A stretch of 64,000 nucleotides of DNA from Lophium mytilinum (taxonomy: Eukaryota): contig MU004192.1 in NCBI GenBank assembly GCA_010093605.1, forward strand, positions 194,882 through 258,881, read 5' to 3'. The notes under the pieces were generated by a model that was not told where the DNA came from, ran no database searches, and saw only the letters and a program-made list of their open reading frames with translations. Of this stretch, positions 2,900 through 52,939 are shown piece by piece; positions within the stretch are counted from its first letter, which is position 1, and each line of letters begins with the position of its first letter. A program made the position numbers and the translations under genes.

Positions 2900-5800
2900 T
2901 TATTAAGGGAGAGTAATTTACTATTTAGTATAACTTCTAGACTAAGGTTATAAGATTTAAGTACTATTTAATATTAAAACTAATTTTATAGATTATTAGA
3001 GCTATAAGGTAGATTCTATAAGTAGCGCATAAGGCTATTAGGCTTACCGCCTAGAATACCTAGGCGGTATATAATTTTAAAGTTAAATCTAGTAAGAAAC
3101 TCTACCTAGCATACTTAACGGCGGTTAAGTTCTTTAGTAGTTATAAACTATTTAAGGTTATAATAATCTATAAGAATATTAGTTAGATTCTTAGGGTCTA
3201 TACTTATAAGCTCTAGTTACTATTCTTTAAAGGCTTTAATAATAGTAAGTAGTTCTTTATTATAGATTTTATAGTTATATTTAGCTAGTAATATTTTAGA
3301 AAAAAAGAAGGCAACTAGGTAAAGAAGGCTATTAGGCCTAATCTAGAATATAATACTAGCTATTATATAATTAGAAGTATTAGTTTTAAGAAAGACCTTC
3401 TTACTATACTAGAAGTATATAAGAATAGGTACTTCTATAAATACTTTTTTAAGCGCGCGGAAGCCCTTTTTATAGGCTTCTATCTATAAAAAATAGGGTT
3501 TCTTCTATTCTTCTTAGAGTTTTATTATATTAGTAAGAGGTTTAATAATTTATAAGAACCTATTAATAAACTATTAGTAGAAATTAGATAGTCTAATAAA
3601 GGCTTAGATATCTTTAATATAATTTAGTATAGTCTACTTAAGAATAGTAGTAACTTTTTCTAGATCTATATAGATTCTATTTATAGAAATAATTAATTCT
3701 AGATAGATAACTTCCTTTTAGTTAAACACGCACTTAGATAGGTTAATATATAGACCTGCTACTTTAAGGTATTTAAGGATAGTAGCTATATAGGCCTTAT
3801 AATTCTCTTTTAAACCTTCTATATAAATAAGAATATTATCTAGGTATACTATATAGAATTTATTAAGAAAATTATATAGCGTATAATTAATAAAGAATTA
3901 AAAGGTTCTAGGGCCCCCTATAATACTAAAGAATATAATAAGGGACTTATATTTACTATAGCGTATTATAAAGGCTATTTTATATTTATAGCTAGGGGCT
4001 ATATAGACTTTATTAAAGGCCGCGATAATATTAAGCTTAGTAAACTACTTAGCTTTACTAAGGTAGTAGAGAGTTTTCTAGATAAGCGGGATTAGGTATT
4101 ATATTTTAATAGTAAGGGTGTTAATAGCTCTATAGTTAATATAGAACTAAATACTGCCCCCTAGCTTATATATAAGAAGAATAGGTAAAGAAACTTATAA
4201 TTATAATTATCTAATATAGCCCTTAGCTAGATTATTATTAAGCTATTTCTTAATAATATAGAGTTTATTAGTAGATATAGAGTATAGGCGGGCTTTAGAT
4301 AGCTTACTAAGGTTAACGCTATTAACCTAGTTAATTTTATAGTTAATACCGGGTCTATATAGAGGAAGTATATCTATATTAACTTAGTTAAATATATAAA
4401 TATATTTATATAGGCTAGGGGGAAGTTTTATAAATATCTTCTCTTTAGTATAATATTACTTAACTTCTATAAACTTCTTAATATTATATATAGCTAGTTT
4501 ATAGAGATAGATAGATATATTACTTATTTATAGGGCTATAACCTAGAGGTAGTTAGAATAGAGTAAGAAGTCCTTACTAGTATTAGTAAGGTTAGTAGTA
4601 ATATATTAAGGTAAGTTATTAAGCTAATCTTCTTTAATAGTAGCTATATAGTATATAGTAAGGTAAGCTATAACGCCTATTCTCTATATAGAGTCTATAG
4701 AATTAAAGGATATTAGAATATANNNNNNNNNNNNNNNNNNNNNNNNNNNNNNNNNNNNNNNNNNNNNNNNNNNNNNNNNNNNNNNNNNNNNNNNNNNNNN
4801 NNNNNNNNNNNNNNNNNNNNNNNNNNNNNNNNNNNNNNNNNNNNNNNNNNNNNNNNNNNNNNNNNNNNNNNNNNNNNNNNNNNNNNNNNNNNTAAGTAGT
4901 ATCTATAAATTTATTAGTTACTCTAGTATTACTATAAAGGTATTCTTTAATTATATCTAGTAGTTATTCTTTATAGAAACGCTAGACTTTAGCTAGAACT
5001 AGAAAGCTATAGAGGGTCTTTTTATTAGTTTAACCTACTTAAATATTATTACTAAGAGAGGCAGCTAAAATAACTAACCTTCTTAACTATAACTATATAG
5101 ATTCTTTATTTTTATAGTATTAGACTACTTAAGTAATAATACACCCTAGATCGCGACTATAATCTAGAACTAAGTATTTTCTAAATAGAAATAGCTCTAG
5201 TTTTAGGGTTAGCTATAGCCTATAAATAGTCCTCCTGCGCCTCTAAATAAGATAGAAGTATTAATACCTACTTTAGTAGAAGCTAGAGTAAATATAGTAG
5301 GCGTATAGTTAGATAAAGTATATATAGATAGAGGCGTGTATATAAATAGAGTATATATAGATAGAGCTAGAGTTATAATATTATTAGAATATATACTAAT
5401 ACTATATAGGGCGAGTATAGAGCGCTCTATAGAATACTACTAGTTAGTAGAAGTATAGCCTATAAGTTAGTAGTAGAAGTAATAGTTCTTACTTATAAGC
5501 TAATACTTTTAATTATCTATAAGGCGGCCTAGGGCAGGGCGCTACTAATTAGTAGAGATATTAATAGAAAAGTTTATAGCTTTATATATCTATAGCATAG
5601 ATATCTAGTAATTCTAGCTAGGTATATTTATTATATTCTAGCCTTATTTTTAGCTCTAGTTATTCTAGTAGCCTTAATTTTAAGAGACCTAATTCTAAGT
5701 AGCTTAGAATTAACCTATTAGAGTCTAATTAGTAGGGTTCTAATTAGAAGGGTTCTATAGGCGGTTACTATAGTAGCTACTATAGTAGCTATTATTAGTC

Positions 5801-7845: not shown

Positions 7846-8045
7846 TATTAGGGCTTAAGGTTAGAATATTAGAATTATTAAATTAAATAGTATTAATATT
7901 AACAAAAGATAAATATAAGAGAGAAAGAGGTTCCTAGAATAGACGTTATAATAACCTAAAGGGCGGAGCAACGTTTACCTGTTCTATAGAGCCTCTATTA
8001 TATAACCTCTAGTTATATATTATACGTAATTATATAGCTATAATA
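7846..8045 (-). repeat. 3' LTR of Gypsy element 2 (200 bp)
   Basis: TATTAGGGCTTAAGG...GCTATAATA, a RIP form of TG...CA. Near-identical to 42,890-43,089 and adjacent to the PPT. Confidence 0.95.
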
Positions 8046-11000
8046 TATCTCCCCCCTCTAAAAAAGCCCTCTAATTAAAGCCTTCTTTTTATAAGAGAGT
8101 TCTTTCTATACTAGAGTATCTATAATTACTTAAATATCTATTAAATAAAGTGCTAGGTTATGCTATAGTTATAATTTAAATAAAGGAAATAAATTAATTT
8201 ATAGAGAATTACTTATCCTTTCTATTTTTATATAGCCTTCTATAGCCTTACTATTTAGTATAGTATTATATAGCTACTTTATTAGTCTATTAGTATTACT
8301 ATATATAGTATTACTATGCGCAGTATTACTATACGCAGTATTACTATTTTATTATTTATCTAGACTAGGGCCGGCTATAATAGAGCTATAAGGAGCTATA
8401 TAGCTTTTATAGCTACTAGCCTACTACTAGGTACTTATAATAATCTACGCTATTATATTACATTTAATTATTATATACATCTATAGTTAGGCCTTCTTAA
8501 TAAATTAATTTAACCGCTAGTCTAGTAATTAAATTATATAGCTTCCGTAGTATTAGTTATATAGAGGTCTATTATAGTAAGAATAGTAGCTAAGGTTAGT
8601 TTCTAGTCTAATAGTAATTAGAATAATAAGTAAGGGCCTAGTTTCTTAGAGTATTAGTAGTAGAAATCTATAATAAGGTGCGGGCAACTATTAGCGTAGT
8701 TATAGTTATTCTATTAGGGCTTATTATTCTATCTAATAAACTTAATCTTATATTATAGTATGCCCCTTTTTCTAGTAGTAGAATTAAGATATCTTCTATC
8801 TAGATAGCTATCTATAACCTTTTTAGCATTACCTTTCTAATATATAGGTGTTATTTAAATAGGGGGAGGCTTAGAATTATATTATCCTTTTATAGAAATA
8901 GTGTTAGCTAGATAGAGAAGCTATAGGTAAAATATTAGATAGATATTCTCTATACCTTTTAGTAGGTTAAGCTTGTACGCGTTTCTATTTTTATAGCTCT
9001 CTAGGATCTTAAAGAGGCCTAGCTTCTTAAAGTTAAGCTTCTTATTTAGTTATATTATTTTAATAAAGCGTCTATCTAGCATAACTTAATTACCTAGATA
9101 ATACATCTAAGCTAGTTATTATCTAGTGTTAGCGTATTTCTTTTACTTAGCCTAGGCCTATTTAATTTCCGTGCGGAGGAACGCGCGTAACCTATCTAGC
9201 TTATTAATAAGTTTATCCGCTAGCTTAGTAAGTTAAACTATTAGTATAGTTGTATCCTATAGTAAATATACAGCTAGTGCGGTGCCTGCGCTAGGAATAT
9301 AGCCTTTAGTAGCTATAAAGGGGGCTACTCTAGTAGAGGCATTTCTTAATAAGTTAGCTTTAAATTTAGCTATAGTAAGAAAGTTATACTAGTTATCTTA
9401 CTAGTAGTTAATATATACTCTAAGGTACTATTTTAAGCCTATATTAGTAATCTCTATCTATCTATCTATTTTAGGGTAAAAGGTAGTAGAGAGCTTTAGC
9501 TTTATACTAATATACTTATATAGGCGAGACTAGAAGATTAAGATAAATTATATTCCTCTATTAGAAATAATAGACTATAGGTACTCTTTAGTATACTATA
9601 CCTATTTAAGAAAGGCTTATACTACTTTCTTAGTATCTATTATAACTATTAGAATAAACTTGCATATTTTAGAGAGTCTATTAATAATAACTATAATATA
9701 TTAGTAATCTTATCTAAATTATAAGTATATTAGTAGGGGGCCAATAAAATTAACTATAAGATTAGTCTAGTATTACTTAGAAATAGAAAGTAGTTTAAGA
9801 AAGCCTTACTTTATATTGCGTGCATGCTTAATATAATTATATAGCTAGCAGGCCTTAATATAATAGTTAATATTATTAGTTATTTATAGCTAGAAGTAAT
9901 ATATTAAAACCCGGTTATATATAGACGTAGTTCTACTATAGCTAACTAGGGGAGGTTTATATAGACTTTTAATAATAGCTAATTATAGTTCCTCTTTAGT
10001 AGAAATATATAGGTAGTCCTTCTAAATAAAAATAAGGCTATTATAAATTATATAGTTGTAAAGCTTAAGCTTAACACTATAATTTTTAACTATATTAGTA
10101 GGTAGGCGGCGTAGCTTAGCTCTAATAGCGTCTTTAATAGCGTTGCTAATAGTATTATTAATAAGGGCTTCTCTTATATAATCTACTATATCTTACTCTA
10201 TAGCACTATTAGTAGGGTTACTCTATAACTCCCCCTACCTTAGTAACTTCTATAGTTCTTTATTAAGGTTACTCTAAGACTCCCCCTAATTAAGTTCTAC
10301 TTTACTAAAGTTATATAATATTACTAAGAGGGAAACTATATTATAGGTAACACTATTAGTTATAATATAAGCTAGTTTAATAGCGTAATATATTTCTAGT
10401 TCTAGGTTATAGTCCTTTAAGATTATTTATTATTAGATTTTATAGCGTTTATTATCTTAATCTAGTATATTACCTAGGCGTCTAGTTAGTAGATTAGCCT
10501 TACTATTATCCTTGCCTGGTTAGTAAGTAATCCGGAAGTTAAACTTAGAGAGAAATTTAGCCTATCTAGCCTATTATTAGTTAAGCTGTTTAGTCTCTAT
10601 AAAGTATTATAAGGTGCAGTAATTAGAAAGAACCTTAATTAGATTACTATAACTATAGCTAGTAAGCTTAGTGCACTATTCTTTAAAGGCGTAAATAATA
10701 GCGAGAAGTTCCTTATTATAGATTTAATAGTTAAGCTAGGCGGCGCTTATCTAATAGGATATAAACGCGATAGGGCGGAGAACGCCGTCTTATATTTAGA
10801 ATAGTATAGTAGCTGTAATAGTATTAGATATATTATATTCTACCTATATCTCTAGGTCTAGATTAAAGTGCGCTATCTAAGAAGCGTTAATAAACGCTTA
10901 TTTTATTTATTTAAAGAAGAAGTCTTCTAAGCTATCTTTCTACTATAGAAAGGTAAACTACTTATAGACCTCTACTCTAGTAAGTCTTATAAGTGGCCCT

Positions 11001-14000
11001 ATAATATTAGAATAGGTAATAATAAATTGCTAGTAGAAGTTATAGAAACCTAGAAAGGCTTATATATTATAGAGGTTCTATAGCTATAGCTAGTTAATAA
11101 CTATATTAACTTTAGCTAGATCTATCTTAAGGCCGTTAACGCTAATAATAACGCTTAGGTACTTAACTTCCTATTTATAGAACTTACATTTTATAATATT
11201 AAGGAATAGGCCAGCTTTATAAAGTTATTAGAGGACCTTCTTAACGTGCCTAATATATTCTTTAAGTATTTTACTAAAGATAAGGATATTATTAAGGTAG
11301 GCTATATAGAAGTTATCTAAATATTCTAAAAGAATATTATTAATAAAGGCTTAGAATGTTGCTAGGGCATTATATAAGCTAAATAGTAGAATAGTAAATT
11401 TAAATAGTCTATATCTAGTAAGAAACGCTATATACTTTTTATTGCCTTCCCGCATCTAAATAGTATTAAAGGCGGTAATAATATTAAACTTTATATAATA
11501 TTAGACGTATTTTAATAAGGCTAGAGTATTCTTTATAGCTAGAGGGATATTCCGGGCCTTAATTATAATAGCGTTAAGGCCTTAATAGTTAATATAGATG
11601 TATAGACCTCTACCTAGTTTATAGATAATAATAACTAGAGCTATATATTAACTATTACTTTTCTAAATATAGCCCTTACTATATATCTTATTAATAAACG
11701 TTTTAATAACTAGTGTCTTGTCTCTTAAGAGCCTGTAGATCTTGCGCGCCGGTACTTTAAATTCTAGCTTAATATTAATATAGTAGTTAATATTAGTACC
11801 GTCTTTTACTTTATAATAGAGTAGAAGTTTATTTACTTTCTTTAAATTCTATATATTAAGAAAGCTATAGTATTCTATAGGTACTAATACTTTAAGTTTA
11901 TTGCGGGTTATTAGCGTACGTTCCATCTTCTTAAAGAATTTCCGTTAGTTATCCTTTAATATTGCGTATAGGCTAATAGCCGCTAGGTTATTAGTAAAAT
12001 TAGCTAGACCTAGAATAATATTGCCTAGTTTATACGGGCGTCTATTAGCGCGCGCTTAGGCTTCTATTTTCTTATCTATAAGCGCTAGCTTAAAATATTT
12101 AGGCTATATATAGATAGTATTCTCTTCTAGTAATTACTAGAAGTTATATAAATACTTATTACTAGATATAGTATTAATATTAAGTACTTTAAAAGTAGTA
12201 AGCTAAGCGTTTAGCTTCTACTAGAATAGGCGCTTACTAGTGCAAGTAATAGGGTCTTTAGACTAGATATAAACTAGTTTATAATTAACTAGATATTAAG
12301 AATAGTAGTAGTCTAAATCTAGCTATATTATTTAGGTACTAAATTTTATATAAGCATTATGTATTACTAGCTAGCCTATACTAAAAATAATATTATAGCT
12401 CTTTAGGTTATAGATTAGAGCCTAGAACTTATTATAGTGGCCTTTAATCTATATAGTAACTTTAGCTGCCCTATTAATAACTAACGTAGAACTATTTAGT
12501 AGTTTAATATTACGCGGGGTAGCCTTATAGATATTAAGCTTATAATATTTTATAAAGCTTATAGAAATAAATATAAAACTACTATATCTAGAGTCTATAA
12601 GAATAGTTAATTTAACTATTCTAGTTAAAGTAATAATCTTATAGTTAAAGTCTATTTATTTACTAGAGAGAGGGGTAAGTCTAACGGCGCATGCGGAAAG
12701 CTTAATAATATTAGGTAGTTTAGAAAGAGGTAGCTTAAGCTCTTAAATACGTGCGAGAACTTAAGCTAGCGTGTCTTCTAACTATCTCTAATAATAACTT
12801 TTATTAGAGATTAAGTATTTTCTAAGCCGTCTAATTAAATTACCTTATTATTATTATTATCTTAGCCTTAGTTATCCTTATATTTATACTTATATTAATA
12901 CTTCTAATTACTACTATAGTTAAAGGCGTTAAGTTTTATACTATTAATGCTAGCAGTAGTAAGGCGCTTATTACGCTAAGCCTTTAATATAGTCTTTCTA
13001 GCTATAGTGCATTTAGAATTACTAGTATAGTAGTTCTTCTTAAAGTAGCTAAAGTATTATTCTTCTTTACTTAGGCGTAAGCAAATATAAGGTAGAACGC
13101 TTAGTAATAGAATAGTAATAGTTTTCTTAACTATAATATAGTTATTAGTCTTAGTTATAGGTACTTTATATTGGGCGCAGTCTTTACGCCGGGCGCAGTT
13201 AGAATTATAATAGCTATCTTGCGTGTATGCGTTATTTAAGTAGCGTGCTAAGATTTATATAGTAAGAAGCTCTTTATTAGCTTATTTTTTATATTAAATA
13301 TAATAACAGTTCTTATATAGGATATTATCTTTAACCTAGTACTAGATTAATAAACTAAAGTTAATATATTCCGTAAGATCTATATATAGTGTTTTCTTAA
13401 GGTAATAGTATTAAGTTGTAAGGCTATTATTAATTTTACTATACTTAAGCCTGTTAAGAACAACATTAAGGCGTTATAGAAAGTTAGCTGTCTTTTTATT
13501 ATATTACTATTTTATGCCCTTACTATTAAGCTAGTTAAGAAGGCAGTTATAATAAATAGTGTTACTCTTTTAAAATATAGCATCTAGGTTCTAGATAAGT
13601 TTCTTAAGTAATTAATATAGGTTAGTAGATATAAGAAGACTATAGTCTTCTATAACCTTATATATACGCCCCTTATAGTAGCTAATAGTAAGCTATATTT
13701 AGGTTATAGCTATAGAGTAAGTCTACTAGTCTACTTAGACTAAGTAAATTAGGTAGTTTTTCTAGGCTATATATACTAAAGCTTCTAATTTAAAGTCCTA
13801 TAGATATATATATTTAGGGCAAGGGCCTTATTATTTAAATTAAGAATAGACGGGCCTATATACTTATAGCTAGGTAAAGCCTTCTAGTTAGCTTAAATCT
13901 AGGTTACCCCCTTCTCCTCTAGCTATTATAAAGTATTAACCTGGAACGCGGTTATATTAAAAGTTATCTAGGTTAAGGGTATATAGACCTACTAGTAGTA

Positions 14001-15234
14001 GAAAGAAGGTATTATTAGTAGAATTATAATTAGGGTATTTATCTATATATAAATTATTAGGTTATCCTGCTAATACTAATATATTCTATTAGACTTAAGC
14101 TTTAAAATAGGTAATTCGCGTTAAGGCCTATTAGTATTTAGCTTCTAGGTTATTAAGCTAAAGGGTTTAGGCCTAAAAGTTGGCGTACTTTTTATTATAT
14201 AGGCGGCGTACGCAAGCTAACTCTATTTATTTAGACTTAAGTTTATAGTTAAGGGTGCAGACTTAGGTCTAAAGTTTAGTAAGTTTACTATTAGTAAGTA
14301 AATACTTCTTATTTAGCTCTTTAATAGTAGTGTTGGCAGCGTCTTATTCTTATATAGTAATATTTATTTTATACTTATAATTATTACTATCTTAGTAAGC
14401 TATTATAATGCGGTTCTACTACTATTCTAGTATAAGTTAAATGTCTTTAATAAGATTCTATAGAACTTATAGTTTATATTACTAGTAAACGCCTTCTCTA
14501 TAGCGCATCTTAAAGATAGAGCTATTTATATACTAGGTAATTATAAGATATAATTATTAATAATCCTCTACGCGTATTATAGTCTAGTGTCTATTACTCT
14601 ATTCTATGCCCGCTACTTACTAGGCTAGGTTAGAAGTATCTAATCTAGTAATAGATTTAACGCGGGTAGATTAGTATTATAATAGAGATATATTAGGTAA
14701 GGGGATACTATAAATAGATAGTATTCTTAGATACTTAGAGTTACAGGACTAATATACTTTAGAAATAGTATTATAGTACGCTATAGCTTTAGAAGTATTA
14801 ATAGTAACACCTTAATATACTATCTTAAGCTTATTTACTTTATTATCTTTATTATTACTAAACTAATATTTCTCCTCTTAATAGTCTTATTTATTGGCTA
14901 AGTTAAAGTTAGAGGAGAAGCTATTATTATAGGTAGTAGTTATATTATTAAGGCCGGTAGTTATATTATTAAGTCTATTAGATAAATTAAAGTTGCCTAA
15001 TATATAGCTACTAACGCGGGAGAGCATTAGGAATTTCTAAATTAAGAAACGCGCGGAGAATACTAGTTACTTACGTGACCTTCTAGAAGACTACGCATTT
15101 TGCCGCTCCGCGGGCTTTACGCTACTCTATAAAAGTTTGCCTACTTCTTGCGCAAAATTTGCGCGCAGGCTGCGCAGACAATTTTTAATTATAGATAATC
15201 TAGCATTATGGGCAATTATTACAGTCAATAACTA

Positions 15235-18200
15235 CTTTATAGTCCTTATAAATGTAGCTATCCACCTCCTCTATCTAACCTTCTAAAACTGCCTAATCCG
15301 CCTGGGTTGCAGATAGATAGATAACAACGTAGATGGGGCCTTATACACTAAATACATAATTATCGCGTGCAGTAGAAAATTTAAAGTTGCACTAGTATAT
15401 CTAGTTGTCCCTTCTTACTACCTCCGCTAGGGCTTTATAGTCTACGGCAACTTTGCATGTATTATAGACTTTACGCGTTGCGTAGATAGTAATGCCTGTA
15501 TATATTTCTAAGGATTGCGTAACTATTACTAACCTTAATAATTTTAATATCCTAGTAGACTATTAGAGCTAGCAACGCGTGCGCTAGACGTCCGGGCTAG
15601 GGAATAGCACGCGACATGCATGTTGCGCGTTAGATAGTAGACTATATAGTAATTTAGGACGCATCTAATTACGGTATATATATTGCAAAATAGAAAGATA
15701 ACGCTAAGCATAAGATAGAGCCTACTTACACCCTATTTACTAATTCCATGCTACTATTCCTTATCCCTAATACTCTTAAGCAACTCAACAACTAGCCGCA
15801 GGCTTTCTTCTCTAGAATCCTGTGCCTTAACGCAGGCAGCTATAAACTTTTAATATTAGTCCTTATTAGATACAATTATAGTATTATTTTTATACCAGCC
15901 GCATTTATCTTTCTTTATATAGAACTGCTGCCTAAATTACGCAAATAAGAGATTAAGAGGGCACCGCTTCTAGCAGTCCTTTATTTTAATACTCTCCTTG
16001 GCCTCCCTATAAATTAGAGCTAAGCGGTATAAGTTATTATCAGTAAGGGGCTCTATATTATTAATCTTGTTATTCTATAGTTAATATAATTAGTATATTA
16101 TGCTTTAGCTCTCTACCTTATGCAATTACCTACACTGTCCACAATATCTAATAAAGTGTCCCTAAGGGGGGGGCTAGATAGAATTAAACGCGGTAAGGAC
16201 GAGTACCTAGAGTTAAATAGTTGTACTTCACTCTTAATGCGCTTTATTAGCGCACGTGTCTTCTCGCGTCAGTTAATAAGGTTCCGCTGCCGATCCCGCT
16301 CCTTTGCTTCCATTCTCGCCACCCTCGCGGTAAAGGCCTATTATTGTTCCAGTGTCATATCTTTAGTTAAATTTAATGCGTTGTGGCGGTTAGAGTCATT
16401 ATATATATCCTTGTTGTCGTCTTCTTTATAGTTTATATGCCAACCTACCCGTTTTATAATAAATTCTTGCCAGTAGGATAATAGTTAGTGCTTGCGGCGT
16501 AAGCTAAGTGCCCGCCATTAGGCGAGACATTTATTATAATTTACTACCCTAGCTTATAGTTAGCATAGTCTTGTATAAGGGGGGCGGTAGTTAATACTAG
16601 TAGCGGCGACCCCGTAAATTAGGTTTATGCGCTTCTGGCCCGAGGTATATTCGCTAATGGCGTGGTAGAGGCAAGTACACACATATGTAATAGTATCGCC
16701 TAAGAGGGGGTTAAAAAACTCTTTTAAGTATCTTTATATCCCTAAGGCGTTTATAGACCGTCCTGTAAAGAGTAGGTCTGTAACTACTACCTAGATGGCC
16801 TTAGCTATAAAGATTACTGGTGGCCCCTATAATCTATTAGAATGCTGTCTAACGCTAGGTTAGTAACTAACCTTAGCTTAGTCTTTATCTGCCCTGAAGA
16901 GATAGTTCCAATCCTTTATTAGCGTTAACGCGGTGCCGGCAATATCTAGAGTTATAGAACCGAAACTATAGTATTCTCGCACAATATTATAAGCAACCTT
17001 TATTGCAGTATTACAGAAATAACTAAAAGCGTTATAAATCTAGGTTATATATTATAATTAGCCATTATATAAGGTTATAGGAGTGGGGAGAGAGTAACGC
17101 ACCTTCCGCGCGCAAAAAGGGTCTAGAGTAGTAGGGACGTTAGCTTAAGCATAGAATAGTTAGTCTTTATAGACGTCTGCCTATATTTATATTAGCACTT
17201 GCTAAAATATATCTAGCCTAACACTCTTAGTCTAGGCTATAAGGTTGTTGCCGTATTCTCTAATTACGTTGGTGCCTAACACTATGCTTCTAAGTATCTA
17301 GTATCTTATTTATTCTTCTACTGCCGTGTATTTTACCTCTATAGTTAGTGCTTTAGCATGCCTATCTACGCCATCCCATATCTAAATTATTTTACTGCGT
17401 TATTTTATGCTAAGGAAGCTAATGCGGTTATAGACGGGTGTGCCTCTACCCGTGCCTAAGAAGCGGCTAGTAGAAGAGAAGGATGGTAGACCGCTTAACG
17501 CAAAGGTATTAGACCCAGTTATTTAGTTAACGGCCCTGCGGGCTTCTATCCTAGCCGCTATCTTATCTTGGACCACGGCGGCACCCTAATAGGTATTTAT
17601 TAGTATACACTGCTTAGTAGAGTGGCCGTAATATATATATAAGCTAATCTTACGCTTAAAGTCTATTTACACGCAGAAGTTAGTATTACTAGATTAGGAG
17701 ATAGGCGCGTGCCTGTCCTCGTCCTCTATACCGCGTTTTCTCTTTCCGGCAAGAGATAAGGTGCGGCTAGACGGCCGAGATAATATGGCATTACTATCTT
17801 AGAATGTCCTAGTAGTGCATCCTCTTTTACTTATTAAGTTCTATATATTTGTTATTAGTCGGCAGGCGTTAGAGTTAAGGAAGCTAGGCGCGTTACCGTG
17901 TCGATTAGTTTTAAGGCAGCGCGTTTTTACTTCTTCGCCATCTATAGTTATACGCGTTAGCTGTATATATATTAACGTATACTATAGATAGGGTATATAG
18001 TATAGCACATTTAAGTTATATAGTAAGTCCCTATTTAGGGCAGAGAGAGATAGTCCTATATTACCTTTTACTATGTTTAAGTAGGTAACATTAAGCCTTA
18101 CTAAACAATAGATAGGGGGCGTGTGGTAAAAGAACGTTCTATTTCTTAAGGCAGAGTGCGAGAATAATAACCATAAAGGGAAGTAAAGCAGATTATAATT
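15235..18200 (-). pseudogene. Cargo gene relic, multi-exon, with DUF6532-like domain
   Basis: Reads IFIAKAI*VVVTDLLFTG...EFFNPLLGDTITYVCTCLYHAISEYTSGQ (core at ~16,638-16,686), resembling the DUF6532 pattern AlvctAi..aL.Ew.tG. Several GT..CTAAC..AG-type introns. Ends approximate. Confidence 0.6.
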
Positions 18201-19389: not shown

Positions 19390-20215
19390 AGGATAGCACA
19401 GTACTAGCTAGGGTAGATAGGTGCGGGGGTGTCGTCTATCTATATTAGCTATATTAATTAAAATCGTCGCATATATCTAATATACTATTTAGCTAAGGCT
19501 TAATAATTAGAGTAATATAGTCCGGTTCTCTTAATAAACTCTAATGCACTATTACTATATGCCAGTCTACCTTATTCTTAACTAGGAACTTAAGATTATC
19601 TATAATATAGTAATATATAGTTTCGCGTCCTATATTAAGACTAAATATTATATTTAACCTAGTAACAAGCATACTAAATTTAGGGGCCGGCATTACTAGC
19701 ACACTCTTTAGCAGCGTGGGTGGTGCAAGTTTATATACTAGTATAATGCGGGCGGCCTTACTACCTAGCCGCTTTACTAATATTAACTTTATTCCTATAT
19801 GCGCTGAACTGCGGTAGTATTTAGGGTGCGGCGAAGTTCTATTTTATTCGGCAGGCGGAGTGTCCATAGAATCGGAATAACAAGACGCGTTAATGTAATC
19901 TCGTCTTTTCTTATTATAGTTGCATCGCTGTGCGAGTTTTAACATCCACTTGTATCCTTCTTTAAGTGGAACGCGCAAAAGCATCTTAGGGAACTTCTTT
20001 ATAATATCTATTATTATAGATTATACTATCCCCCTAATTATCTTTAAGTAGAGGAATCCGCCTAGCAGGTCTACTAACTTTATCTTAGTCTCTATTACGG
20101 TATATAGCGTATTATATTCGCGGGCGCTAATATTAAGGCCCTGCATAAGCTTATTCCTAGAGTCCAGCTTAAGGTTATTAGGCATTAGGGACTAGCCTTG
20201 TTCGTCTAACAACAT
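19390..20215 (-). pseudogene. Cargo gene relic, hypothetical protein
   Basis: ATG at 20,215: MLLDEQG*SLMPNNLKLDSRNKLMQGLNIS...KWMLKLAQRCNYNKKRR. Long frame broken mainly by CAA/CAG-derived stops. Confidence 0.55.
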
Positions 20216-20669
20216 AATAGTTTAACAATTCTCGGGGTGCAGAAGGGGTAGAAAAGGCAAAGTTGGAGTTAGTTTATGTACGTGTTCGGACGATAGAGTA
20301 CCGAGACTAGACTCTTATTGCGTCTGCGTAACCAAATTAGCTACTTTAGCGGTAACTATTTTACAGTAATTAATAGAATACCTATACTGCCTCTTCTCTT
20401 AAGAAGAAACTAAAGCCCCTTCGCATTAACAGCAACCTAGCATTTATTAAGTTGTTGGTGTAAGATCTAGATAGTTTAGTATTGGGCTAAAAATTCTATA
20501 TTTTATGCTGCTGCCTAATATATTTATGCATTTAAGTGTTAGAGATAATTGTAAATAATGCTCTATTATTAACTATTACTATGTAACGGCCCGGTTTATT
20601 TATCTAAATGTATGCTTAGGCGGTGCTCCCTTTTTTATAATTATTAACGTTATTATAGGGCGCCGTTAT

Positions 20670-21599: not shown

Positions 21600-24500
21600 T
21601 ACTAATAGTTCCTTAGTTTTCCTTCTTTTTTAGTACACTTCGCATAACCTTATACGTAAACTTATTATTATTAACCGCACGGGACTAAGCTAGCGCATCT
21701 GCTGGGTTGTTACCCCCTATATAGGCGAGAATAATGCCGCATGTTCCGTTGGACCTCTAGTTCTTCCGCCACACTCTAGATATAATCTATACCTTAAGGC
21801 TAGATGCAGTCTATGGCTCTATAACTATCACGCACGTGCATTAAAAAGCAAAGTTGGAGCCTTCTACTCCTCTAGTCTTCCGGTTCGCAACTAGAATATT
21901 AACGGCCGCTGGATCATCTTAATTACGCTTAAAGCCGGTATTAAATTGCTCCCGTTACTTAACTATTAGCAATAAATGTAACCATGCGAGCTTTTTAGTT
22001 AGCATAGTCTTTATAATTATCTAGTATTAATTATATTAGTTTATTAGATAATAATCGCCAATTATAGATAGAGATGGGTAGCAACTTATAATGCAGATAA
22101 CTAAATTAACTATAGGCTCCTCGCCGACAATTAGTATCTTCTTCTTCTTAGCTTAAATGTGTCGAACTATGCTCCTAATCTTCTTTAGCTTCCCCGAATT
22201 GGCTAGTAGGTTAGTGTACTGTTTAGTGAGGGTACTCTTAGAGTCTATATAATCTATCTAGCCCGCATTTTTAATGTCTTCTAGAGTAAAGGTTGGGTTA
22301 CTTATTAAGCTAAGCTCTTCCTATCGCGTTTTTAACTTAGCCAGCCCAGGAATTAATACAAAAATCCAGGGCAGCCTCCCCTTGCCCGAGCCCGTTAGGA
22401 AGGCGCCCAGGCTAAAGAAAGGCGGCGGCTTATTAATTGCCGCTCTATACCTTAGCTATTCTTTATACTCTTCTTTAAGGTCTATATATCTCTCTCTAAT
22501 AACCGTGCAGTACTCCTTAATAAAGGGTTTAAAGTAGTTAGGTGTACTAACTATTACCTGCTATATAATATAGAGCGGCATATCCCCTAAGAGAAGGCTA
22601 TCTAGGCTAAGGCTTATTAGCATTCTGCGGATGCTTATAGCTATAATTACATCTAACACTCTCTAGAGACGCCCAGACAATTTAGAATTATTCTATAGTT
22701 ACCGCTCTTTCTCTATTTTTAAGGCAAGGTAGTAACCTCTAGCCCCTATAAGGTCTTCTTAATTAACACGCCGGAGGGTAGGGCCTTAATAAAGAACGTT
22801 AAACTTATCCCCTTTATCTATATCCTCTTCCTCTAACTCCTTATCTAGAAGAGTATTATCCGGGTCGTCTTTAACATCGGCGTCTAAGTTAGTTAGGTCC
22901 GCCGTCTAAGTTGGCGTCTATAAACCTCCGTATAGCATAACTATTAGATATAATAGAGTTTTAGGGCCGCGGAGAAAAGGAGTCCCGCTATAGAATAAGC
23001 CTCCGGGGCAACTGTACGGATCAGCAGCCTTATTAAACCCTTCTAAGTTCCAGCCCCAATAAACCCAATTAAGCGCACGGTTAATATTCGCCCATTTGCG
23101 CGTAGTTAGGCGGAATGCATGCCGACACTATATAGACTTAATATAGCTAAAAGCCGTAATATATAGAGACGTATTATTAAATCCTAGGTGGAACTTGTTA
23201 AAAAAAACGGCCCCACATATATATATAGGGGTTACTTTATCGCCATGCAATAGGTTATAGAATATTATAAAGGTCTCTAGCGAGTTTAAATTCTTATTAT
23301 ATTTTTTATTAAAGGTCTCCGCGCTTATAATAATAAGATAGGTTTTCGCTCTTAGATTTAGCTTATACCACACCCGACCGTTTATTTCTTAGTGGATAGG
23401 CCTAAGGTTCTTCTAGTCTTTAGAAGTAAGGTTACCCTCCGCAATACTTCTATATACACGCCGGATGTAAAGTCTTTCGCCGGGGACCTTAAAATCCTTA
23501 TTCTTGCATTTAACATCCAGCCAGTATTTTGCCTCCTTATAGGTCTAATTTAGCAGACTCTTCTTAGTAAGCTAAATAACGCAGCCTTCAACGCTGCTAG
23601 AACGCGGAGCATTAGTGCTAGCCTCTCTAGCATAAGTAGCGAATGCTATTAATATTTGCAGAGTTTTTCCTATCCTAGGGGGGTCTATAAGAATTAGCCC
23701 ACGCGCCCTGCCGGCGAGACCTTAGATAATGCTGTATGTCCCGGCTACCTAGTATAGGGCCGCACATATCTTTAGGTTAGTAGTTATTCCTAGCAGCTTA
23801 AAGGTTGCGTTACTAGAAAAATTTCTATATATTAGAGGCAAACTAAAAAACTATAGCACCTTCTTAAACGCTGCCACTAAGATATTCTTTATAGAGCTTA
23901 ATGTCAGGGCTATCGCAGCAGTAATATTAACAGCATCTACCTTCTCCGCGTTAGCCGTAATTATCTTGTTTACGTCTATAGAGGGTCTAGTCTCGCTAAG
24001 ACTATATATATTAAATTTAAGCGTGGCCGCGACATTAATGCTGCTAATTGCTATATCCCCCGCGACTTAGGTATTGCTGGGGATAGTCTAGCCGCTCTCT
24101 ATAGCGACCGCAAGCGCATAGAGTTGTTTTTAGGCAGTTAGGTACTAAGTAGTCCTAGGCCTAAGCGCCCTAAGCTACTATATAACCTTATTATAGACAA
24201 CACTAGGCTAAATAGGATCGCGCATTAACTTAGCATATAGCTAGATAATGTCGAGCATCTATTAGAGTAGTCGCGCTTTCTTCTCTATTTATAGCTTCTG
24301 TGCCTTCTTCTCTACTAGTAGTTTCTACTTTCTTTATTCCTCTTGCTCCACCGCCTCTTCTAGCTGTTCCTGCCTCTTTACTTTCTCTTTAGTCGCGGTC
24401 TCGGCCAGCTCTCTCTCCTTCTATTCTGTCTGCTTCTTAGCCTTCTCCACTATCGCTGTATCTACTAGCTCTCTCTCCTTTATCTCTTTCTCCTTTATTT

Positions 24501-26007
24501 CTTTCTCCTTCCTTTCTTTCTCTACTTTCGCTGTTTCTGCCAGCGCTTTCTCTGCCAGCGCTTTCTCCGCCAGCTCTTTCTCCACCAACTCTTTCTCCTT
24601 CTTCTCTTTCTCTTTCTTTTCTCTCTCTGCTTTCGCTGTATCTGCCAGCTATTTCCACTTCTCCCCTTTATCCTGCTCCGCGGTGGAATTAACTCTATCT
24701 ACATCGGCCACATGTACGTATAGACTTATAGTTAAGTTAATAATTATTTTATCTAGAGCGTTGGCGGCGGTGGGTTTAGGTAGACCCTTAGCCGCGGCAG
24801 CCTTAGGCTTACTATAGCGGGGGCGTTTCTTAGCCGGGCGGATACTAGGGGGCGAGGACTTAAGAAAGTGCGGACCTAGCTATGCATTAGTTAGTGGTAA
24901 TGTTTAATAATCAACAATAATTAACGTACGTCTAGTCTTAAGTTTAGACATCGCCTCCCTAATATTAAGGCCCTTTACTGTAAAACTAAGCACTATCTCT
25001 TTAGGTATACTCTTTATTTCCTCTAATAGCGTAGTTAGATGGAAGTTGTTCTCTATTAACTCCCAGGTTCCATTAACTACAACAACGTGCTCTAGAGGGT
25101 TGAAGTCTGCGAAAGTTCCGTTAATGGCTTCTAGAAACTTTGCAAAGCTATAGTCTTCCGGCTCTAGGCCTTTGCCGCTAGACCTTACAAGACGGAGAGT
25201 AAAAAGGCGTCCAGTGCTTTCCCGCTGCGGCAGCTAGTATATTATAGCGAGGACCGCGTGCAACAGCCGGGGCTTAAATAGGGTATTTTAGGCAGCGACA
25301 TCTAGGGATTTTATTAGAGAGCTAAGGCCTGCTAATGCAACCAACTTCGCGGATAAGGCCGACTTAGACCGCTTCCGCTTCTTATTACTTTTAATAATAC
25401 TGCCCCGTATCTTATATTTCTTATAGACTTTATACTAGATTAATATCTAATACGCTCGCTTCTACTTAGCTAATATAGAAGACTTCTTAAATATGCAACT
25501 CTATATATCTATAAAAAGTGTATATATTTTAGACTAAGCATCTAAGTAGGCGTTATTCTTACTATAGTTATTTTAGCCTAGTTGCAAGAGACGTTTTACC
25601 TGTAGGTACGCTTCGGAGTTCTCTATTAGCATAAATAAGTTAGCTTCTATCCAGCGCTACACCTTAGAAGCTAGACCCAAGCCGGCCATAATATTTATTT
25701 AACTTAAGTAGCCTTTAGGGTTCTTAGTAAAATTAGATGCCGCCTTGCTCTGCATAGTTGTGTTGCGTAGCAGGTCTACTAGGGGTGTTACAGCCTTCCC
25801 CCAAGCAGGTCTAGAGCGTTGGCAGCTGCTGCGGGGAGGCCGGCGGCTGCGGCGGTTATCTAGCTTATCTAGCTCTGAATTGCTATTATAGTCTACTTAA
25901 CTAGAGTCTATGCTTAACGACTATTTATCTAGGTTAAACTCCTTGTTATTTTAATCGTCGGGGAGGCGTTGTTGGCGACTAGTGCGTTGACCCGATCCTT
26001 TAGCCAT
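21600..26007 (-). pseudogene. Cargo SNF2-family (SWI2/SNF2) ATPase/helicase relic with long N-terminal extension and E/R/K-rich linker
   Basis: Motifs in order: LY*VAG, GLILIDPPRIGKTLQ (Walker A, 23,656-23,700), VFFNKFH (=DEFH, ~23,188-23,208), YSGTPF (~22,975-22,992), SIRR, SGKLKKI, KKILIVGE, ILVANRKTRGVEGSNF (~21,850-21,900), *IISRVWRKN* (=QxxxRxxRxxQ, 21,757-21,789). ATG at 26,007. Introns near 24,880-24,930 and ~22,020-22,090. Confidence 0.88.
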
Positions 26008-31749: not shown

Positions 31750-34700
31750 CATACTAGCCCATAATCTAATATAATCTGCAATAATCGCTCGCAATCTATA
31801 AGTTTCTACGTGGGGCCAACTAAATTTAACTAGAAATAGGGTATATACCTTCTACTAAATATAGACACTGCTATAAGTTGTTCTAAATACTTAGCGCCCT
31901 AAATAAATATATACCGTGCTGCAAAAAGCTCCTTAAGATGCTGCAGCGGGTCCCGCTCGCTAATACTAGGACTACTAGATCCGTAATCTAGTCTTGCATG
32001 CTCCGCGTTATTTAGATAATAGACGGGATATTATTTAGAACGCCTAGATTGCCACTAGTAAGTCTACCCCTACCAGCCAACCCCTATAATAAGATAGAGT
32101 ACAAGATAAATAGAATAGAGCTATATATCTCCAGTAAACTAGAAGAGTACTAGAGTCCGCCTTCTATAAATAGAGGCCCTATAAGCTTAATATACAATAA
32201 CCCGCCGGAGGCTGCTAAATTCTGCGTTCCGCACTAATAAGGCCGACTAATAATATCGTCCACATTATTGCTATAAGAGGAAGTATATCCCTCTACTAAA
32301 TTAGGCATGCCCGCAGGGGCGTCTATTAGACAGGCCGATGCTAGATAGTAGACGTAAGTATTATTAGGGACCGCTATCCCCCCCGCCCGTAAAGGCGGCA
32401 TTAGAGCTTACTAACCGGTTGCTCTATTATAGGGACTAATCCCCCTTCTATCTATTCTAATCGGCGTTTAACCATGCTTTTATATTATAGCTTTAGTAGA
32501 TTGGCTGCACTAAGAATAATATTAACCTGCTGTTTAATAACATCCACCTTAAGAGCACGTTTTCTAACTCCCTTATGTTTACATCGGGCGATTTATAGAA
32601 CAGTAAACTAGAGGAAATTAGATACGGCGTTAGCAATACTAACTATATAGTGGAGATGCTGCATTTCCCAAGTAAAAAATAAAGCTTAAGCGGAGAGTAG
32701 CATCCGGTGTACTACTTTAATATAATAGTAGCTATATTATTCCTAATTAGATACCGCCCTTTCTATAATTACCTTATATTTATACTAGTTTAAGTCTATA
32801 ATATAGAAGGCCGGCAGGTATATACTAAGTTGCATACATTAGACTAGTAGTAGTAGACTTAGTTAAAGCTCCCAGCGGGGGCCACGGTAATACCTATCTT
32901 GCTCTCCGCGGACGAGATATAGCTTACCTAATATCGCGGCGACAAGAGCGCATAGCCAGTCTATCTAACTATTAGCAACCTAGATAGGACCACGCGGCGC
33001 TTAAACACGTTGCCTGGCACCCTACTACTAGGCTTTATACTAAGCACGGCGGATAAAGGAGACTACCTAAAGCATTAGCTGTACTATAGCTCTTTAGGCT
33101 ACATTCTTAGGCATTAGTAAAATTCTTGCCAATACTAAGCGGTTTTCTAATATAAAATAAGCTATTATAGAACATACTACTAATAGAATTATACTAGAAT
33201 GCAGGGATAGTAAGAATTAAAGGTGCTATCCAGTATTATGCGGAATTATAGCTAATTATAAAGAATAGAGCCTACTTATAGGTATTAAATTTAGAAAACA
33301 CTGCACTATATACTAGGTACCATCACATTAACGCGAAGACCTAGAGACTAAACACGCCGTAAGGTCTTACCGCTTAACTATTATTTAGATTAAATAGCAA
33401 CGCAACAACGAAGAGCGTTTAAAACTTCTGCTAAATAAAGCGCTGCGCAACGTAGAGGCTATAGAGCTTAATATAGAGTTATACGTACATTCTATAAATA
33501 ACTTTACCTAGAAATACCCCTATACCAACATCCACTAAATAATAATAATAGATATCCTATACTAACTATTTACGGGCGTCGTTCACGACCTTATTAAATG
33601 GGTCTAGCTACTAGTGGCGGAGGTCTGCACCCCAGCAATTAGAAGAAAAGATGCCCGTGTCCTAATAGAAAACGAGAGCGGCTTAACCTAGCTAGACGAG
33701 CGATTTAAGGACGTGCCGCCTTTCCCGGGTCTATCTACATTTAATAAGAAGAATTTTAGCAAACTCTTGTAGTATACTAGCTCTAAATAAAAGTCTATAG
33801 CCCGCCAGCTTATAGTAGTAGTAGCACCGCTGCTAGAAGTAAAGGCACTAAACGCGCTCCGGTTTGTCCGTGCAATACTTAATTTTACTATTCTAGCGCA
33901 GTACAAGATATATAACGAGGCCACGCTAGAGTATATAGAGCTGGCGATAGCTTAAATTAATATATATAAGTTAGAATTTAGGACATTTAGACCTAGGGAT
34001 AAGGATAGAAACTACGCCTTCTACTACCCGAAATTCTACATTATGCAGCACTACGTTGATTTTATACAGAAATTCGGCGCCATTAATAGCTATAACACCG
34101 GCTTAAATAGCAAAGCAAAACACCAACACCTAGTTAAATCACAGTATTAGTTAATAAACTATAAGAACTTTCTACCCTAGATCTGCCAATTAAACTAGAG
34201 ACTTATAAACGACCAGGCCATAAACAATATACTAAACTACCAACATTACTATCCTTAACTAGTAGCGATAAGAGACATGCTAATGCGATAGATAACAGTA
34301 TTAGAAAGTATTAATATCTTAAACTTTAAATGGCCTGGATACAATAATTTCTATAAAGGCCGAATAGTGCACCATCTAAAAGTAAGCGTTAAGTACATAG
34401 CTAATATAAGCCGGGAGCCAGACTTTATAGCCGCCGCCGCCGTGTTTATTTAAGAAGAGAGGCGCAAAATCCAAGGCTAATATACTAAGCCTAGCAGCCT
34501 AGATATATTAGACCCTAATCTATTCTAGGTTAGCCACCTCTAGCTTAAGTTCCACGCTAGTATTTCGTGTTGGAAGCGATTAGGTGCTAGCGAGGACCTA
34601 GAAAGCCTTATAAAAGAAAATCTATAGTGCAACCCTAAGTAGTAGAACTAAGAATAGTAACGCAACTATCTATAGGTGCAAGAGTATAGCTTAGACTATA

Positions 34701-35329
34701 CTAAAAACGGGAAGACGCGCGTTAGTATTGCTAACAGGAGGTTAGTAGGGTAGCTACAATTTATAGTAACTATTATAGACCCTATTCTAAAGGGTAAAGA
34801 TACTCTATAGGCGGCACACTCTAGAGTTTTTATTCGCCTTCTAGCGCCAATTAATAATGGGAAGCTACATTACGTCCATGGCCTGGTGGAGGTAGCTTCT
34901 TAGGCTTCTAACAACAGCCGCCGCTAATAAAAGCTAGGAGCATATTAATTCTATCTACTGCCATAAGTCCTCTAAAGTGCACACGTTATACCAGCTACCT
35001 CTAGCCTAGACCCCACCCGTTTTTTTATTAATAACTATATTAACTGGGATTAATATAATACACTCTATACAGAAGACTGGAAGATAGAGGCGCAAGAGGC
35101 AATGAGGTAGTACCGGCTTAGCGGTCGCGCTAAAGAGATTAAAGCTGCCCTAAGAGTTAAAGACGCAGCGGAGATTTTAGTAAAGCGCGTAAGGGCAAGA
35201 GCACTTACTAACGCCTCTCTCCCGCAACTAAGCCGGTAAACACCAAGAAGCAGCACAGTAAAGAGGGGCCATGGCACCGGCAAGTAACAGCGTAGGTAGG
35301 AATAAGGCCGCAAGGAAAGACGTCCTTAA
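31750..35329 (+). pseudogene. Plavaka-family (CACTA/EnSpm-like) transposase relic with N-terminal C2H2-like finger
   Basis: VYTKLHTLD****T*LKLPAGATVIPILLSADEI*LT*YRGDKSA*PVYLTISNL (~32,818-32,982, =DWWWxTQ..LP.GAT..P....D.TQL...G...AWPVYLTIGN). CYPVLCGIIANYKE* (=ADYxEQ, ~33,225-33,268). DILY*LFTGVV (=DxLHQ, ~33,551). LDERFKDVPPFPGL. PKFYIMQHYVDFIQKFGAINSYNTG...KH (~34,028-34,125). SAHVIP...FFINNYINW near the C-terminus. Confidence 0.93.
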
Positions 35330-39240: not shown

Positions 39241-40072
39241 GAACTATGCAAGTCTACCTATATATACTCCCTATATGCCTTCTATACCCTCGCGCTACTA
39301 CTAAGTTAACTTTTAATAGATATGCAGCATGCATATATACCTTATGTCTTAGAGCCTATCCCCGCCCTAAGCTCTAACTTAGAAACTGCTTATCTGCCCA
39401 CTTCTAATATAAACCCCCTAAACTGCACGCGCTTAAAAACACTACTAGTCTTGCGACACCCATTTAGAGATGTTCTATAGTTGCGATATCTAGCGCGTTA
39501 AGCTATAATACAAGGGATTAAACCTAAGGCCAATTAAGAATAACTATTAGTAATAATAGCGCACTACCGTAAAGACGCACTTATATAAGATTCTAATAGT
39601 GCACTTAAGGGAAAAGTATGCAGCAACCGTTGGTTAAAACACGTGCGCCTAAGCCTTAAATTTCTAGCGCCTGCCCGTACACGTAACAGGACTGTTCTCC
39701 TCTATTCTGCGGGTATAAAAGCCTGCCCCGTATCTCTTTCTCTATGCCACGGAGTAGTAGGAGGTGGCAAGAGTTAAAAAGGTAGAAGAGTTATAGTAGA
39801 GATTAACTTAAGGCTAACTATTTAGAATATAGCGGGTGTTAAAATCGCGTACACTAATAAATTATAGTAGGGGCTAAAGCTAGCAGAAACTTGTCTAAGA
39901 CTCTAGAAAATAGAGAATAAGAGGCAGTGCGCGGGTATAGCTTACTAATAGTGTCTACTATAATAGAAAGCTAATAGCGCACTAATATCTAGGTTAGTAG
40001 TTAGACTAGCACGGTTCTGCAAAGCTATATTAGGCAAAGGTAATATACTCTAGCATCGCCGGCTTATATTAC

Positions 40073-40205
40073 CTACTAAGCTTCTCTATTCCTTCCGCTC
40101 TACTCTATAAGCTTTTTTATCTACTAGGTTTCTCTATCCCTTCCGCTCTACTCTATAGAATTTTTTTTCCACTAAGTTTCTCTATCCCTCCCGCTCTACT
40201 CTATG
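40073..40205. repeat. Tandem repeat, 3 x 48 bp
   Basis: Units start at 40,073, 40,121 and 40,169 (CTACTAAG.TTCTCTAT.CCTTCCGCTCTACTCTAT). Confidence 0.9.
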
Positions 40206-42889: not shown

Positions 42890-43089
42890 TATTAGGGCTT
42901 AAGGTTAAAACGTTAGAATTATTAAATTAAATAGTATTAATATTAATAAAAGATAAATATAAGAGAGAAAGAGGTTTCTAGAACGGATATTATAATAATC
43001 TAAAGGGCGGAGTAATATTTATCTATTCTATAGAGCCTTTATTATATAACCTCTAGTTATATATTATATATAATTATATAGCTATAATA
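42890..43089 (-). repeat. 5' LTR of Gypsy element 2 (200 bp)
   Basis: Same sequence and length as 7,846-8,045, differing almost only by transitions. Followed by TAACC. Confidence 0.95.
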
Positions 43090-48500: not shown

Positions 48501-48646
48501 GGTGGAGTAGGAAGCAGATCCGCCGCAACGGCTGGTGTCGGAGCAAGCTCTGGCTTTGTAGGGCCGGGAGCTACAATTGGAATGGACTTCGAGCCTTTGG
48601 GTATAACGAACTTGAAGTTGCCGCTGCGAGGAGGCTTGCTCGCCAT
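45583..48646 (-). CDS. MOV10/SDE3/Armitage-like Upf1-family (SF1) RNA helicase; 2 exons (48,646-46,196; 46,134-45,583)
   Basis: ISGPPGTGKTKTLVE, ILVCAPSDPAAD, LMDEAAQAIEPE, AGDQKQLGP, SLFERL, LTRNYRSHP, FQGLESRVVI, RMNVALTRAK. GTGAGT...CTGAC...TAG intron at 46,195-46,135 joins the two ORFs in frame. Acidic C-terminal tail. Confidence 0.93.
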
Positions 48647-51600: not shown

Positions 51601-51750
51601 ACCACCACAGCCTACACCAGCAACCGTCTTCACGCAGGCCGTGTCTATTTAGCCACTCCTTCTGCTCACCCTCTTATAACTTTGTTGACCCTCAACCCGG
51701 CCTTGACCTTTGTTTACCACCCTACTACCACTGGACGTCAACAGGCCAAC

Positions 51751-52939
51751 ATGTCTGGCTTCGTTGCTATCAACGCACCTAGCAACTCCAACCCGCCCTC
51801 CCCTCGTTCGGAGTCTCCCGGAACCTCTGACAAAGTCATCAAATCTGTGGAGCAGATGCTCCCAGAACGCCCGAGTGGTAAGTGCTACATACGCGAGTAG
51901 CAAAGTAACGGACACTAAACTATAATAGGAGACCCAAACAACAATGATGACAACAACCATCCACTCTCCCCCCCTCGCGAGGCCTCCCCATCCAAGCTCA
52001 CGCCCATCTCGACGACCGCCCCCCTCGCCGAAGGCACTGCTGGGCCCACCCCCGAACCTTCTGAACACGAGGACGCATCTATGGAGGGGAGCGTAGACGG
52101 TGACACTACTATGAACGAATCCATGGGGAATACCACCATCGACACTTCTATGGAGGAGGACTCTCTTGCTATGTCTTCGGAGCATGCCACTCTAGACGCT
52201 ACTGGCAAGGAAGAGTCTGTCACCGACGACCAGCCCTCGACCGTGATGACTAAGGAACAAGCCCGTGCTAGTAAGTCACCCCGACATCCCCCTCAAAATA
52301 CATTCGCTAACCTTCGCCTTCCCCAAAGACCGCGAGTTTGAGTGCGTCTTCAACCCCAAGGGCCAGTGCAATACCGGCCAGTACACCATGGACCTCGCCC
52401 GCAAGACCATCTCGCACCACTTCGGCCGCAACAAGGCCTGCACGCGCGCCATCAAGGGCTGGCCCATGTACTGCCGCAAGCACTACCAGCGCGGCTGCTA
52501 CGGGAAGCACCAGTGGCAGATGACCAAGATCGACCTGATCAAGCACATGTTCAAGAAGATCGAGAGCCAGTACCCGGGCATCGAATACACCATCGCGATG
52601 AAGAAGTCTGAGGAGAAGCGCATCAACGAGTATGCGCGCGAGCAGGCTTTCCCGAACGCCAAGGAGTACAAGTGGGCGGACACTCCGTCGTGCATCCCCA
52701 CCAAGGGCGAGGCCCAAGAGGCGCCTATGAGCCTGCTAATCAAGCTCCAGGGCCGCATGGGCCCGGATAGGGACATGAAGTTCTGCCGCGAGACGGTCAA
52801 TATCATCAAGAAGGAGATTGAAGCGGATACAACTGACAAGCTGGAGCTCCCGAACATCGAGTTCCTTCCTCAGATCCCGGTCCTTCGTTCGCCGAAGAGC
52901 CGTGTTACCGCCAAGGGTGGCATTCAGAAGCCCCAGTAG
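51751..52939 (+). CDS. Conserved fungal protein with Cys/His motif (ORP1-like family); 3 exons
   Basis: ATG at 51,751. Introns ~51,878-51,928 and ~52,271-52,328. Motif C..C...RKTISHHFGRNKACT...WPMYCRKHYQR...ELPNIEFLP. Strong codon bias in exon 3. Confidence 0.75.

Follow-up and report, generated by a model that had tools for sequence, protein, structure and literature searches.

The window, that is, the whole stretch of 64,000 nucleotides of contig MU004192.1 of Lophium mytilinum that was analysed, contains an older Gypsy element whose ORF1 is interrupted by a giant Plavaka element. The following features were recognised.

7,846-8,047, minus strand: 3' LTR of the host Gypsy, 91% identical over 202 bp to the other LTR
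8,048-15,024, minus strand: 3' part of the host Gypsy ORF1 and pol region (RVT_1, RT_RNaseH, SH3_Tf2-1), from domain matches
15,023-15,024, no strand: left copy of the target-site duplication, AG, from the sequence and empty sites
15,025-41,629, plus strand: giant Plavaka element, whole, 26,605 bp, GC 40%, the least RIP-mutated of 15 copies compared, with no internal assembly gap
15,025-15,041, plus strand: left terminal inverted repeat (TIR), 9-bp core CATTAGGAA, with RIP-compatible positions up to about 17 bp, from end comparison
16,626-17,045, minus strand: DUF6532 domain in an accessory gene broken by RIP, Pfam E 8.7e-9, above the cut-off
19,823-20,236, minus strand: remains of an unnamed coding sequence, whose homologue lies next to a related transposase (L085), E 3.8e-6, 0 matches in the reversed control
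21,700-23,862, minus strand: relic of a likely SNF2-like, divergent ATPase, N-lobe via a homologue, C-lobe motifs seen only on inspection
32,500-35,100, plus strand: gene of the Plavaka DDE transposase, disrupted by RIP and read in two frames, an intron being probable near 33,110-33,160, from PF18759 and motifs, extent from intact relatives
41,613-41,629, minus strand: right TIR, 9-bp core TTCCTAATA at 41,621-41,629
41,630-41,631, no strand: right copy of the target-site duplication, AG, from the sequence, public contigs and empty sites
41,632-42,081, minus strand: 5' portion of ORF1 in the host Gypsy, taken as gag from its position and holding 11 stops in 150 codons, from frame reading
42,890-43,091, minus strand: 5' LTR of the host Gypsy, 91% identical over 202 bp to the other LTR

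The host element was assigned to Gypsy by its pair of 202-bp LTRs and by the domain order RVT_1, RT_RNaseH, SH3_Tf2-1, while neither a gag domain nor an integrase core gave a Pfam match in it. The interrupted frame is taken as gag from its position upstream of the RT, RNase H and SH3 domains. The duplication made by the Gypsy element itself would be the 5-bp TAACC if its LTR ended two bases earlier. To the left, positions 2,935-4,256 are 60% similar to the Gypsy RT region (10,394-11,709) and belong to another, older LTR element. About 3 kb past the Gypsy lie the first intact host genes (46,004-62,338), which encode an SF1 helicase (AAA_11/12), a Mit1-type SNF2 remodeller and a SpoU methylase; four degenerate unit copies, spaced by 181-189 bp, lie in non-RIPped DNA at 63,079-63,890.

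At the left junction the window sequence reads GGGAGAG followed by CATTAGGAATTTCTAAATT, the first element base being 15,025, and at the right junction it reads AGTTTCGGGTTTTCCTAATA followed by AGTAGT, the last element base being 41,629, which gives an element of 26,605 bp. The GC content rises from about 27% in the Gypsy flank to 38-44% across the left junction and drops again past the right one. The breakpoints proposed in the preliminary description, 15,025 and 41,629, were both borne out by the junction reads and by empty Gypsy copies, and the imperfect TIR it described was recovered: eight of the nine core positions are identical and the ninth is a C/T transition, and over the first 17 positions 15 are identical or differ by a transition only. 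Neither a longer TIR nor subterminal repeats rose above background in a comparison of the two 700-bp ends (score 35 vs 27.5-57). Public contigs cross the right junction (41,564-41,734) without any difference, and their loose ends at 41,630 correspond to the empty Gypsy sequence. These contigs exclude a slip of the assembly at this junction but do not represent independent strains, as they probably derive from the sample that was assembled. Assignment of the left CA to the Gypsy, which would shift the breakpoint, was rejected, since the empty copies that keep a C there (L049, L060 and L069) read CG and 19 other left ends start at the same base.

The length of the duplication was determined on empty sites. 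Of 31 other genome matches to the right flank, 29 were available as loci, and the two flanks were aligned separately to each of these empty Gypsy copies. They overlapped by exactly two bases in 24 of the 29 copies, or in 22 with stricter, RIP-tolerant scoring, in agreement with the AG found on both sides of the element and with the 2-bp duplication proposed earlier. A different breakpoint or duplication length, which would contradict the junctions, was looked for in the same copies: the 22 gave exactly two bases, and the remaining seven carry small indels near the insertion site, six of them multiples of three. Length variants of the Gypsy ORF1 beside the site (equivalents of 41,600-41,670) were observed at loci L046, L047, L053, L054, L056, L062 and L065. 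The expected overlap was thus found, but the hexamer TAGTAG predicted for the empty site was not: at 41,635, where the window copy has T, 21 of the 22 clean empty copies have a purine and read TAGAAG or its RIP variants.

The preliminary description had also argued that removal of the element and one AG restores the gag frame. The two parts are indeed in register, but the joined frame is not open, stops being absent only from a run of 73 codons (28 + 45) that spans the junction. The distance of exactly 150 codons from 42,081 is arithmetic and not evidence. Those codons hold the 11 stops listed above, and the ATG at 42,081 is kept in one of the 28 other Gypsy copies read. In L065 and L069, which are naturally empty, the frame continues through the site. 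Since the frame argument sets the duplication length modulo 3 only, the real proof comes from the empty copies.

The search of the genome (43.4 Mb, 49 contigs) for further termini yielded 20 left and 18 right ends, with 0 in the reversed controls; two right ends duplicate others, which leaves 36 distinct ends. Twelve insertions have both ends, ten with a 2-bp duplication (AG, AA three times, CT, TA, AC, AT and TT twice) and two with a 3-bp duplication (ATA and AGA), so that the collection of termini which the preliminary description had proposed gives duplications of 2 or 3 bp at 12 insertions. A 2-bp match in 10/12 same-contig pairs compares with a mean of 1.9 in shuffled pairs (p = 2e-6). 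Empty sites showed an overlap of two bases at five insertions (22/29, 13/13, one, one and two copies), so that of the 2-bp cases three have one or two empty copies each and five have none; the overlap was three bases for AGA (19/19) and for ATA (13 of 32 projections, the rest being explained by the empty variant L052).

Four sister copies are colinear with the window copy from end to end, with a unit of 26.5-26.7 kb, and the four gap-free copies (window, C7, C13 and C12) measure 26,605-26,650 bp and have their own duplication each. In several other copies the sequence is interrupted by 10-N scaffold spacers or by stretches that are unreadable, and their pairing is weaker; the unpaired ends lie at contig edges or beside unreadable stretches. 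The same-contig pair C11:366120 and C11:328078 proved false, the right end C11:328078 (L215) belonging with the left end C9:1994592 (L194): the two flank a single target site, AGA, in 19/19 empty copies. Mis-scaffolding is a likelier cause of this split than a real exchange, because scaffold spacers are present in those copies. Given the unreadable stretches and spacers at these places, neither a translocation between the C9 and C11 halves nor deletion of three missing ends is claimed. Nested insertions were also observed. A second giant copy (C7:1090915) sits inside another Gypsy copy of the same family, in the leader region at the equivalent of about 42,744, with the ATA duplication. A full copy is nested in its own family at C12:1357799-1384403 (L120-L122) with an AA duplication and 13/13 empty sites, and further apparent self-nesting occurs on C2, C9 and C12.

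Every family copy found is wrecked by RIP. Between the sister copies and the window copy, transitions make up 99.1-99.5% of the differences, and the window copy has the highest GC content among the 15 copies (40% vs 25-34%). The pairwise identity of these copies is 84-94%, with 1-43 transversions per 10 kb in a nearly star-like pattern. Copies C7:2186485, C9:2022027 and C2:1912665 have 11 transversions in common and may represent a second subfamily or master. Transposition after RIP was considered and rejected, there being no near-identical pair among the 15 copies. RIP in this genome is strongly biased towards TpCpA: about 93-95% of TCAN is lost in the window copy and about 100% in the others. 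GpCpA is spared, with GCAN least hit and GCAT the most resistant context, at 37.4 per 10 kb vs 44.4 in host genes; host genes served as the no-RIP baseline, and the context rates are therefore rough. Reversal of RIP by pooling of copies fails because the TpCpA sites are saturated, and 36 of the 40 stops in the transposase stretch of the window copy are stops in every copy.

The ancestral terminus was reconstructed against this background. All ends read (C/T)ATTA, the 36 distinct ends having TA at positions 4-5 and the 20 left ends T at position 3. The terminal C is kept in one of the 20 left ends, that of the window copy, in a GCAT context; it survives after G because RIP spares this context, and its counterpart at the right end, where TG is followed by A, is lost because RIP depends on context. 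As none of the termini in the assembly (20 left, 18 right) has C at position 4, CATCA is deduced and not read directly from any end. The preliminary description had left two pre-RIP termini side by side; on the RIP context rates, CATCAGGAA is likelier than CATTGGGAA by about 4:1, since the probability that RIP alone leaves TA at all 36 ends is 0.78 starting from CATCA vs 0.21 starting from CATTG. The form CATCAGGAA equals the first nine bases of PlavakaB-1_SLL from Serpula lacrymans, given with the ends CATCAGGAA and TTCCTGATG in Fig. S2 of Kojima 2025 (PMC12730594), where all B families begin with CATCA. The same element could nevertheless have had a native CATTA or CATTG, which would be a new terminal type. 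The uniform TA of all ends agrees with such a terminus, and the pentamer does vary among Plavaka elements, since those of Tuber end in CATAC according to the available text of PMC12581995. Both the RIP probabilities for CATTG and the published B termini speak against it, and we regard a native CATTA or CATTG as unlikely.

The identification as Plavaka made in the preliminary description was confirmed by PF18759, which matched at 32,668-33,604 in two frames above the cut-off (E 2.8e-15 and 2.2e-12); the genome has 16 matches to this profile, all with stops. Roles of the transposase motifs were assigned by alignment and from the published description. The first D of the DDE triad is kept in 12/12 copies, the second D in 1/11 and the E in 1/11. 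The two cysteines of the C(2)C motif are kept in 2/11 and 3/11 copies, the first His of HxxxH in 0/11 (Tyr in 11/11, one C-to-T step away) and the second in 8/11. Every one of D, D, CxxC, H..H and E thus either occurs in at least one copy or lies a single RIP change away, and all are conserved in intact relatives. Protein searches gave 906 matches to the transposase at E 0.001 or better; among the 20 strong matches looked up, three have an organism name, and these are Plenodomus lindquistii, Ciborinia camelliae and Periconia digitata, all of them filamentous ascomycetes. Intact relatives of the transposase include KAI8940000.1, KAI9640247.1 and CAI6270625.1.

The CA..TG terminal ancestry and the 2-3-bp duplications agree with the CACTA-like (CMCT) behaviour noted earlier, which raises the possibility of an EnSpm/CACTA element proper with a merely Plavaka-like transposase. 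Such ends and short duplications are common to this transposase clade, and rust EnSpm families with Plavaka-like transposases are described in the available part of PMC12730594. The same source, however, gives fungal EnSpm/CACTA families CAC..GTG ends and 3-bp duplications, whereas the window family has T at position 3 in 20/20 left ends and 2 bp at 10/12 insertions, and PF18759 is the sole Pfam match of the transposase, with intact relatives scoring E 1e-72 to 1e-75. An EnSpm element proper is accordingly very improbable.

Besides the transposase, the element carries remains of other genes, although much of its 26.6 kb is without annotation. Homologues of the DUF6532 gene in metagenome relatives (L073-L075) lie upstream of the transposase on the opposite strand, as in the window. 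The gene at 21,700-23,862 is likely to be SNF2-like. Its frame at 23,185-23,862 is 27% identical over 283 aa to a frame of L112 (pairwise E 3e-13), which has a clean motif I and DExH and weak SNF2 scores (Pfam E 0.044; own profile E 0.002). A Lys/Glu-rich stretch (24,266-24,817) precedes the relic, and Helicase_C pieces occur upstream of related transposases at L077, L088 and L095. Direct SNF2 profile searches of the RIP-damaged frames of the window copy gave no significant match, and the L088 helicase piece did not align with the window element. Likewise, no TET/JBP dioxygenase gene, the mark of TET+ Plavaka, was matched by Pfam in 36 + 22 X-read frames, a weak test, as RIP damage hid the SNF2-like gene from it too. 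Inspection by eye suggested an Ulp1 protease near 38.9-39.6 kb, but searches did not support it. In the intact relatives L081 (1471-4353) and L085 (5051-7933) the Plavaka transposase is immediately preceded by an SF1 helicase gene (AAA_11/AAA_12), which was not detected in the window element. Three tandem 48-bp units lie at 40,069-40,212, about 1.4 kb inside the right end. No element ends were recognisable in the 42 metagenome loci of relatives, most of which are too short.

The weakest alternative, hardly credible, takes the 26.6 kb for a composite of a normal-sized Plavaka and unrelated neighbours, or for an assembly product, with the AG match due to chance, and although a chance 2-bp match has a rate of about 16% in these flanks (shuffled mean 1.9/12) and scaffold spacers do occur in other copies, it is already largely refuted by the four gap-free colinear copies with their own duplications, by the agreement of the empty sites and by the public contigs that bridge the right junction.

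We conclude, with a probability of about 0.93, that a single 26.6-kb PlavakaB-type cut-and-paste transposon, inserted into ORF1 of an older Gypsy, ends at the two junctions. The ends and their duplication, the empty sites, the multi-copy colinear unit with its internal Plavaka transposase and the RIP damage are observed directly. By analogy with the CMCT/DDE family, the transposase would bind short CA..TG ends, most likely CATCAGGAA, and excise the unit; joining would then take place at a cut staggered by two, sometimes three, bases without an evident target sequence, and gap filling would produce the target-site duplication. The GC contents and transversions suggest that one or two masters recently gave rise to a burst of copies, each of which was then presumably hit by RIP independently. 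The window copy appears to be among the latest arrivals and probably landed in a Gypsy that had already been mutated by RIP.

The suggestion that this locus may define the end structure of Plavaka does not stand, because such ends are already in print (PMC12730594 and PMC12581995, available parts), and the Marasmius paper PMC8290104 likewise states that the Plavaka TIR has been characterised; the available text of PMC5751038 and PMC13519894 contains no Plavaka end data. The window family is instead a confirmation, which extends the PlavakaB rule to a RIP-active ascomycete and has both duplication lengths, 2 and 3 bp, within one family. Its unusual features are the large size and the cargo (DUF6532 and the divergent SNF2-like gene), which is also found beside the transposases of relatives. 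As the exact ends prove that the 26.6 kb moved as one unit, these two genes are passengers and not neighbours.

The terminal 9-mer together with the duplication rule can be used to search other fungi for giant copies that are still intact. As a guess, the cargo could serve chromatin access. A wider proposal, which we consider possible but on balance doubtful, is that filamentous ascomycetes harbour an undescribed giant (>25 kb) PlavakaB lineage, in which a conserved module of a divergent SNF2-type ATPase, DUF6532 and orphan genes would open or protect chromatin for movement in silenced, repeat-rich regions. Starships are giant cargo-carrying transposons, and if the proposal were true, giant PlavakaB elements would be a second class beside them, with exact ends known from the window family. 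An ascomycete giant Plavaka with SNF2 was not found in the literature searched (subscription journals and Repbase lay outside the search).

Among known systems, the giant Plavaka of the red alga Bostrychia (bioRxiv 10.1101/2025.02.11.637652, available part) resembles the window element in its giant size, the accessory genes by the transposase and the mostly degenerate copies. It differs in its length of 17.4-19.1 kb and in its accessory genes, PAG1, a methylase-SET gene and a ParB-2OG oxygenase gene, none of which was detected in the window element. The Plavaka of the Chinese white truffle, as far as described in the available text of the Tuber genome paper, has in common with it the ascomycete host, the 2-bp duplications and a TIR starting with CAT, and differs in the motif itself. 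PlavakaA has the termini TGT..ACA, with TGTCG in Fig. S2 of PMC12730594, whereas the window copy starts with C and its positions 4-9, TAGGAA, fit the B pattern and not TGTCGGAAAA. For PlavakaB the available part of the same paper gives the ends CATCA..TGATG together with duplications of 2 or 3 bp. The window element, whose ends are RIP-compatible with CATCA, agrees with PlavakaB-1_SLL in duplications of 2 or 3 bp of free sequence and in a transposase that has the C(2)C and H(3-4)H motifs. It departs from the PlavakaB published there in its 26.6 kb, compared with insertions that measure about 6.2-9.3 kb by the coordinates in Fig. S2 and a single consensus of 9.9 kb, in its DUF6532 and SNF2-like cargo, and in its host, apparently a RIP-active ascomycete where those elements belong to Agaricomycotina. 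All assessable features of PlavakaB membership are present, with the placement in B and not in A made from the termini only, and the element works like PlavakaB.
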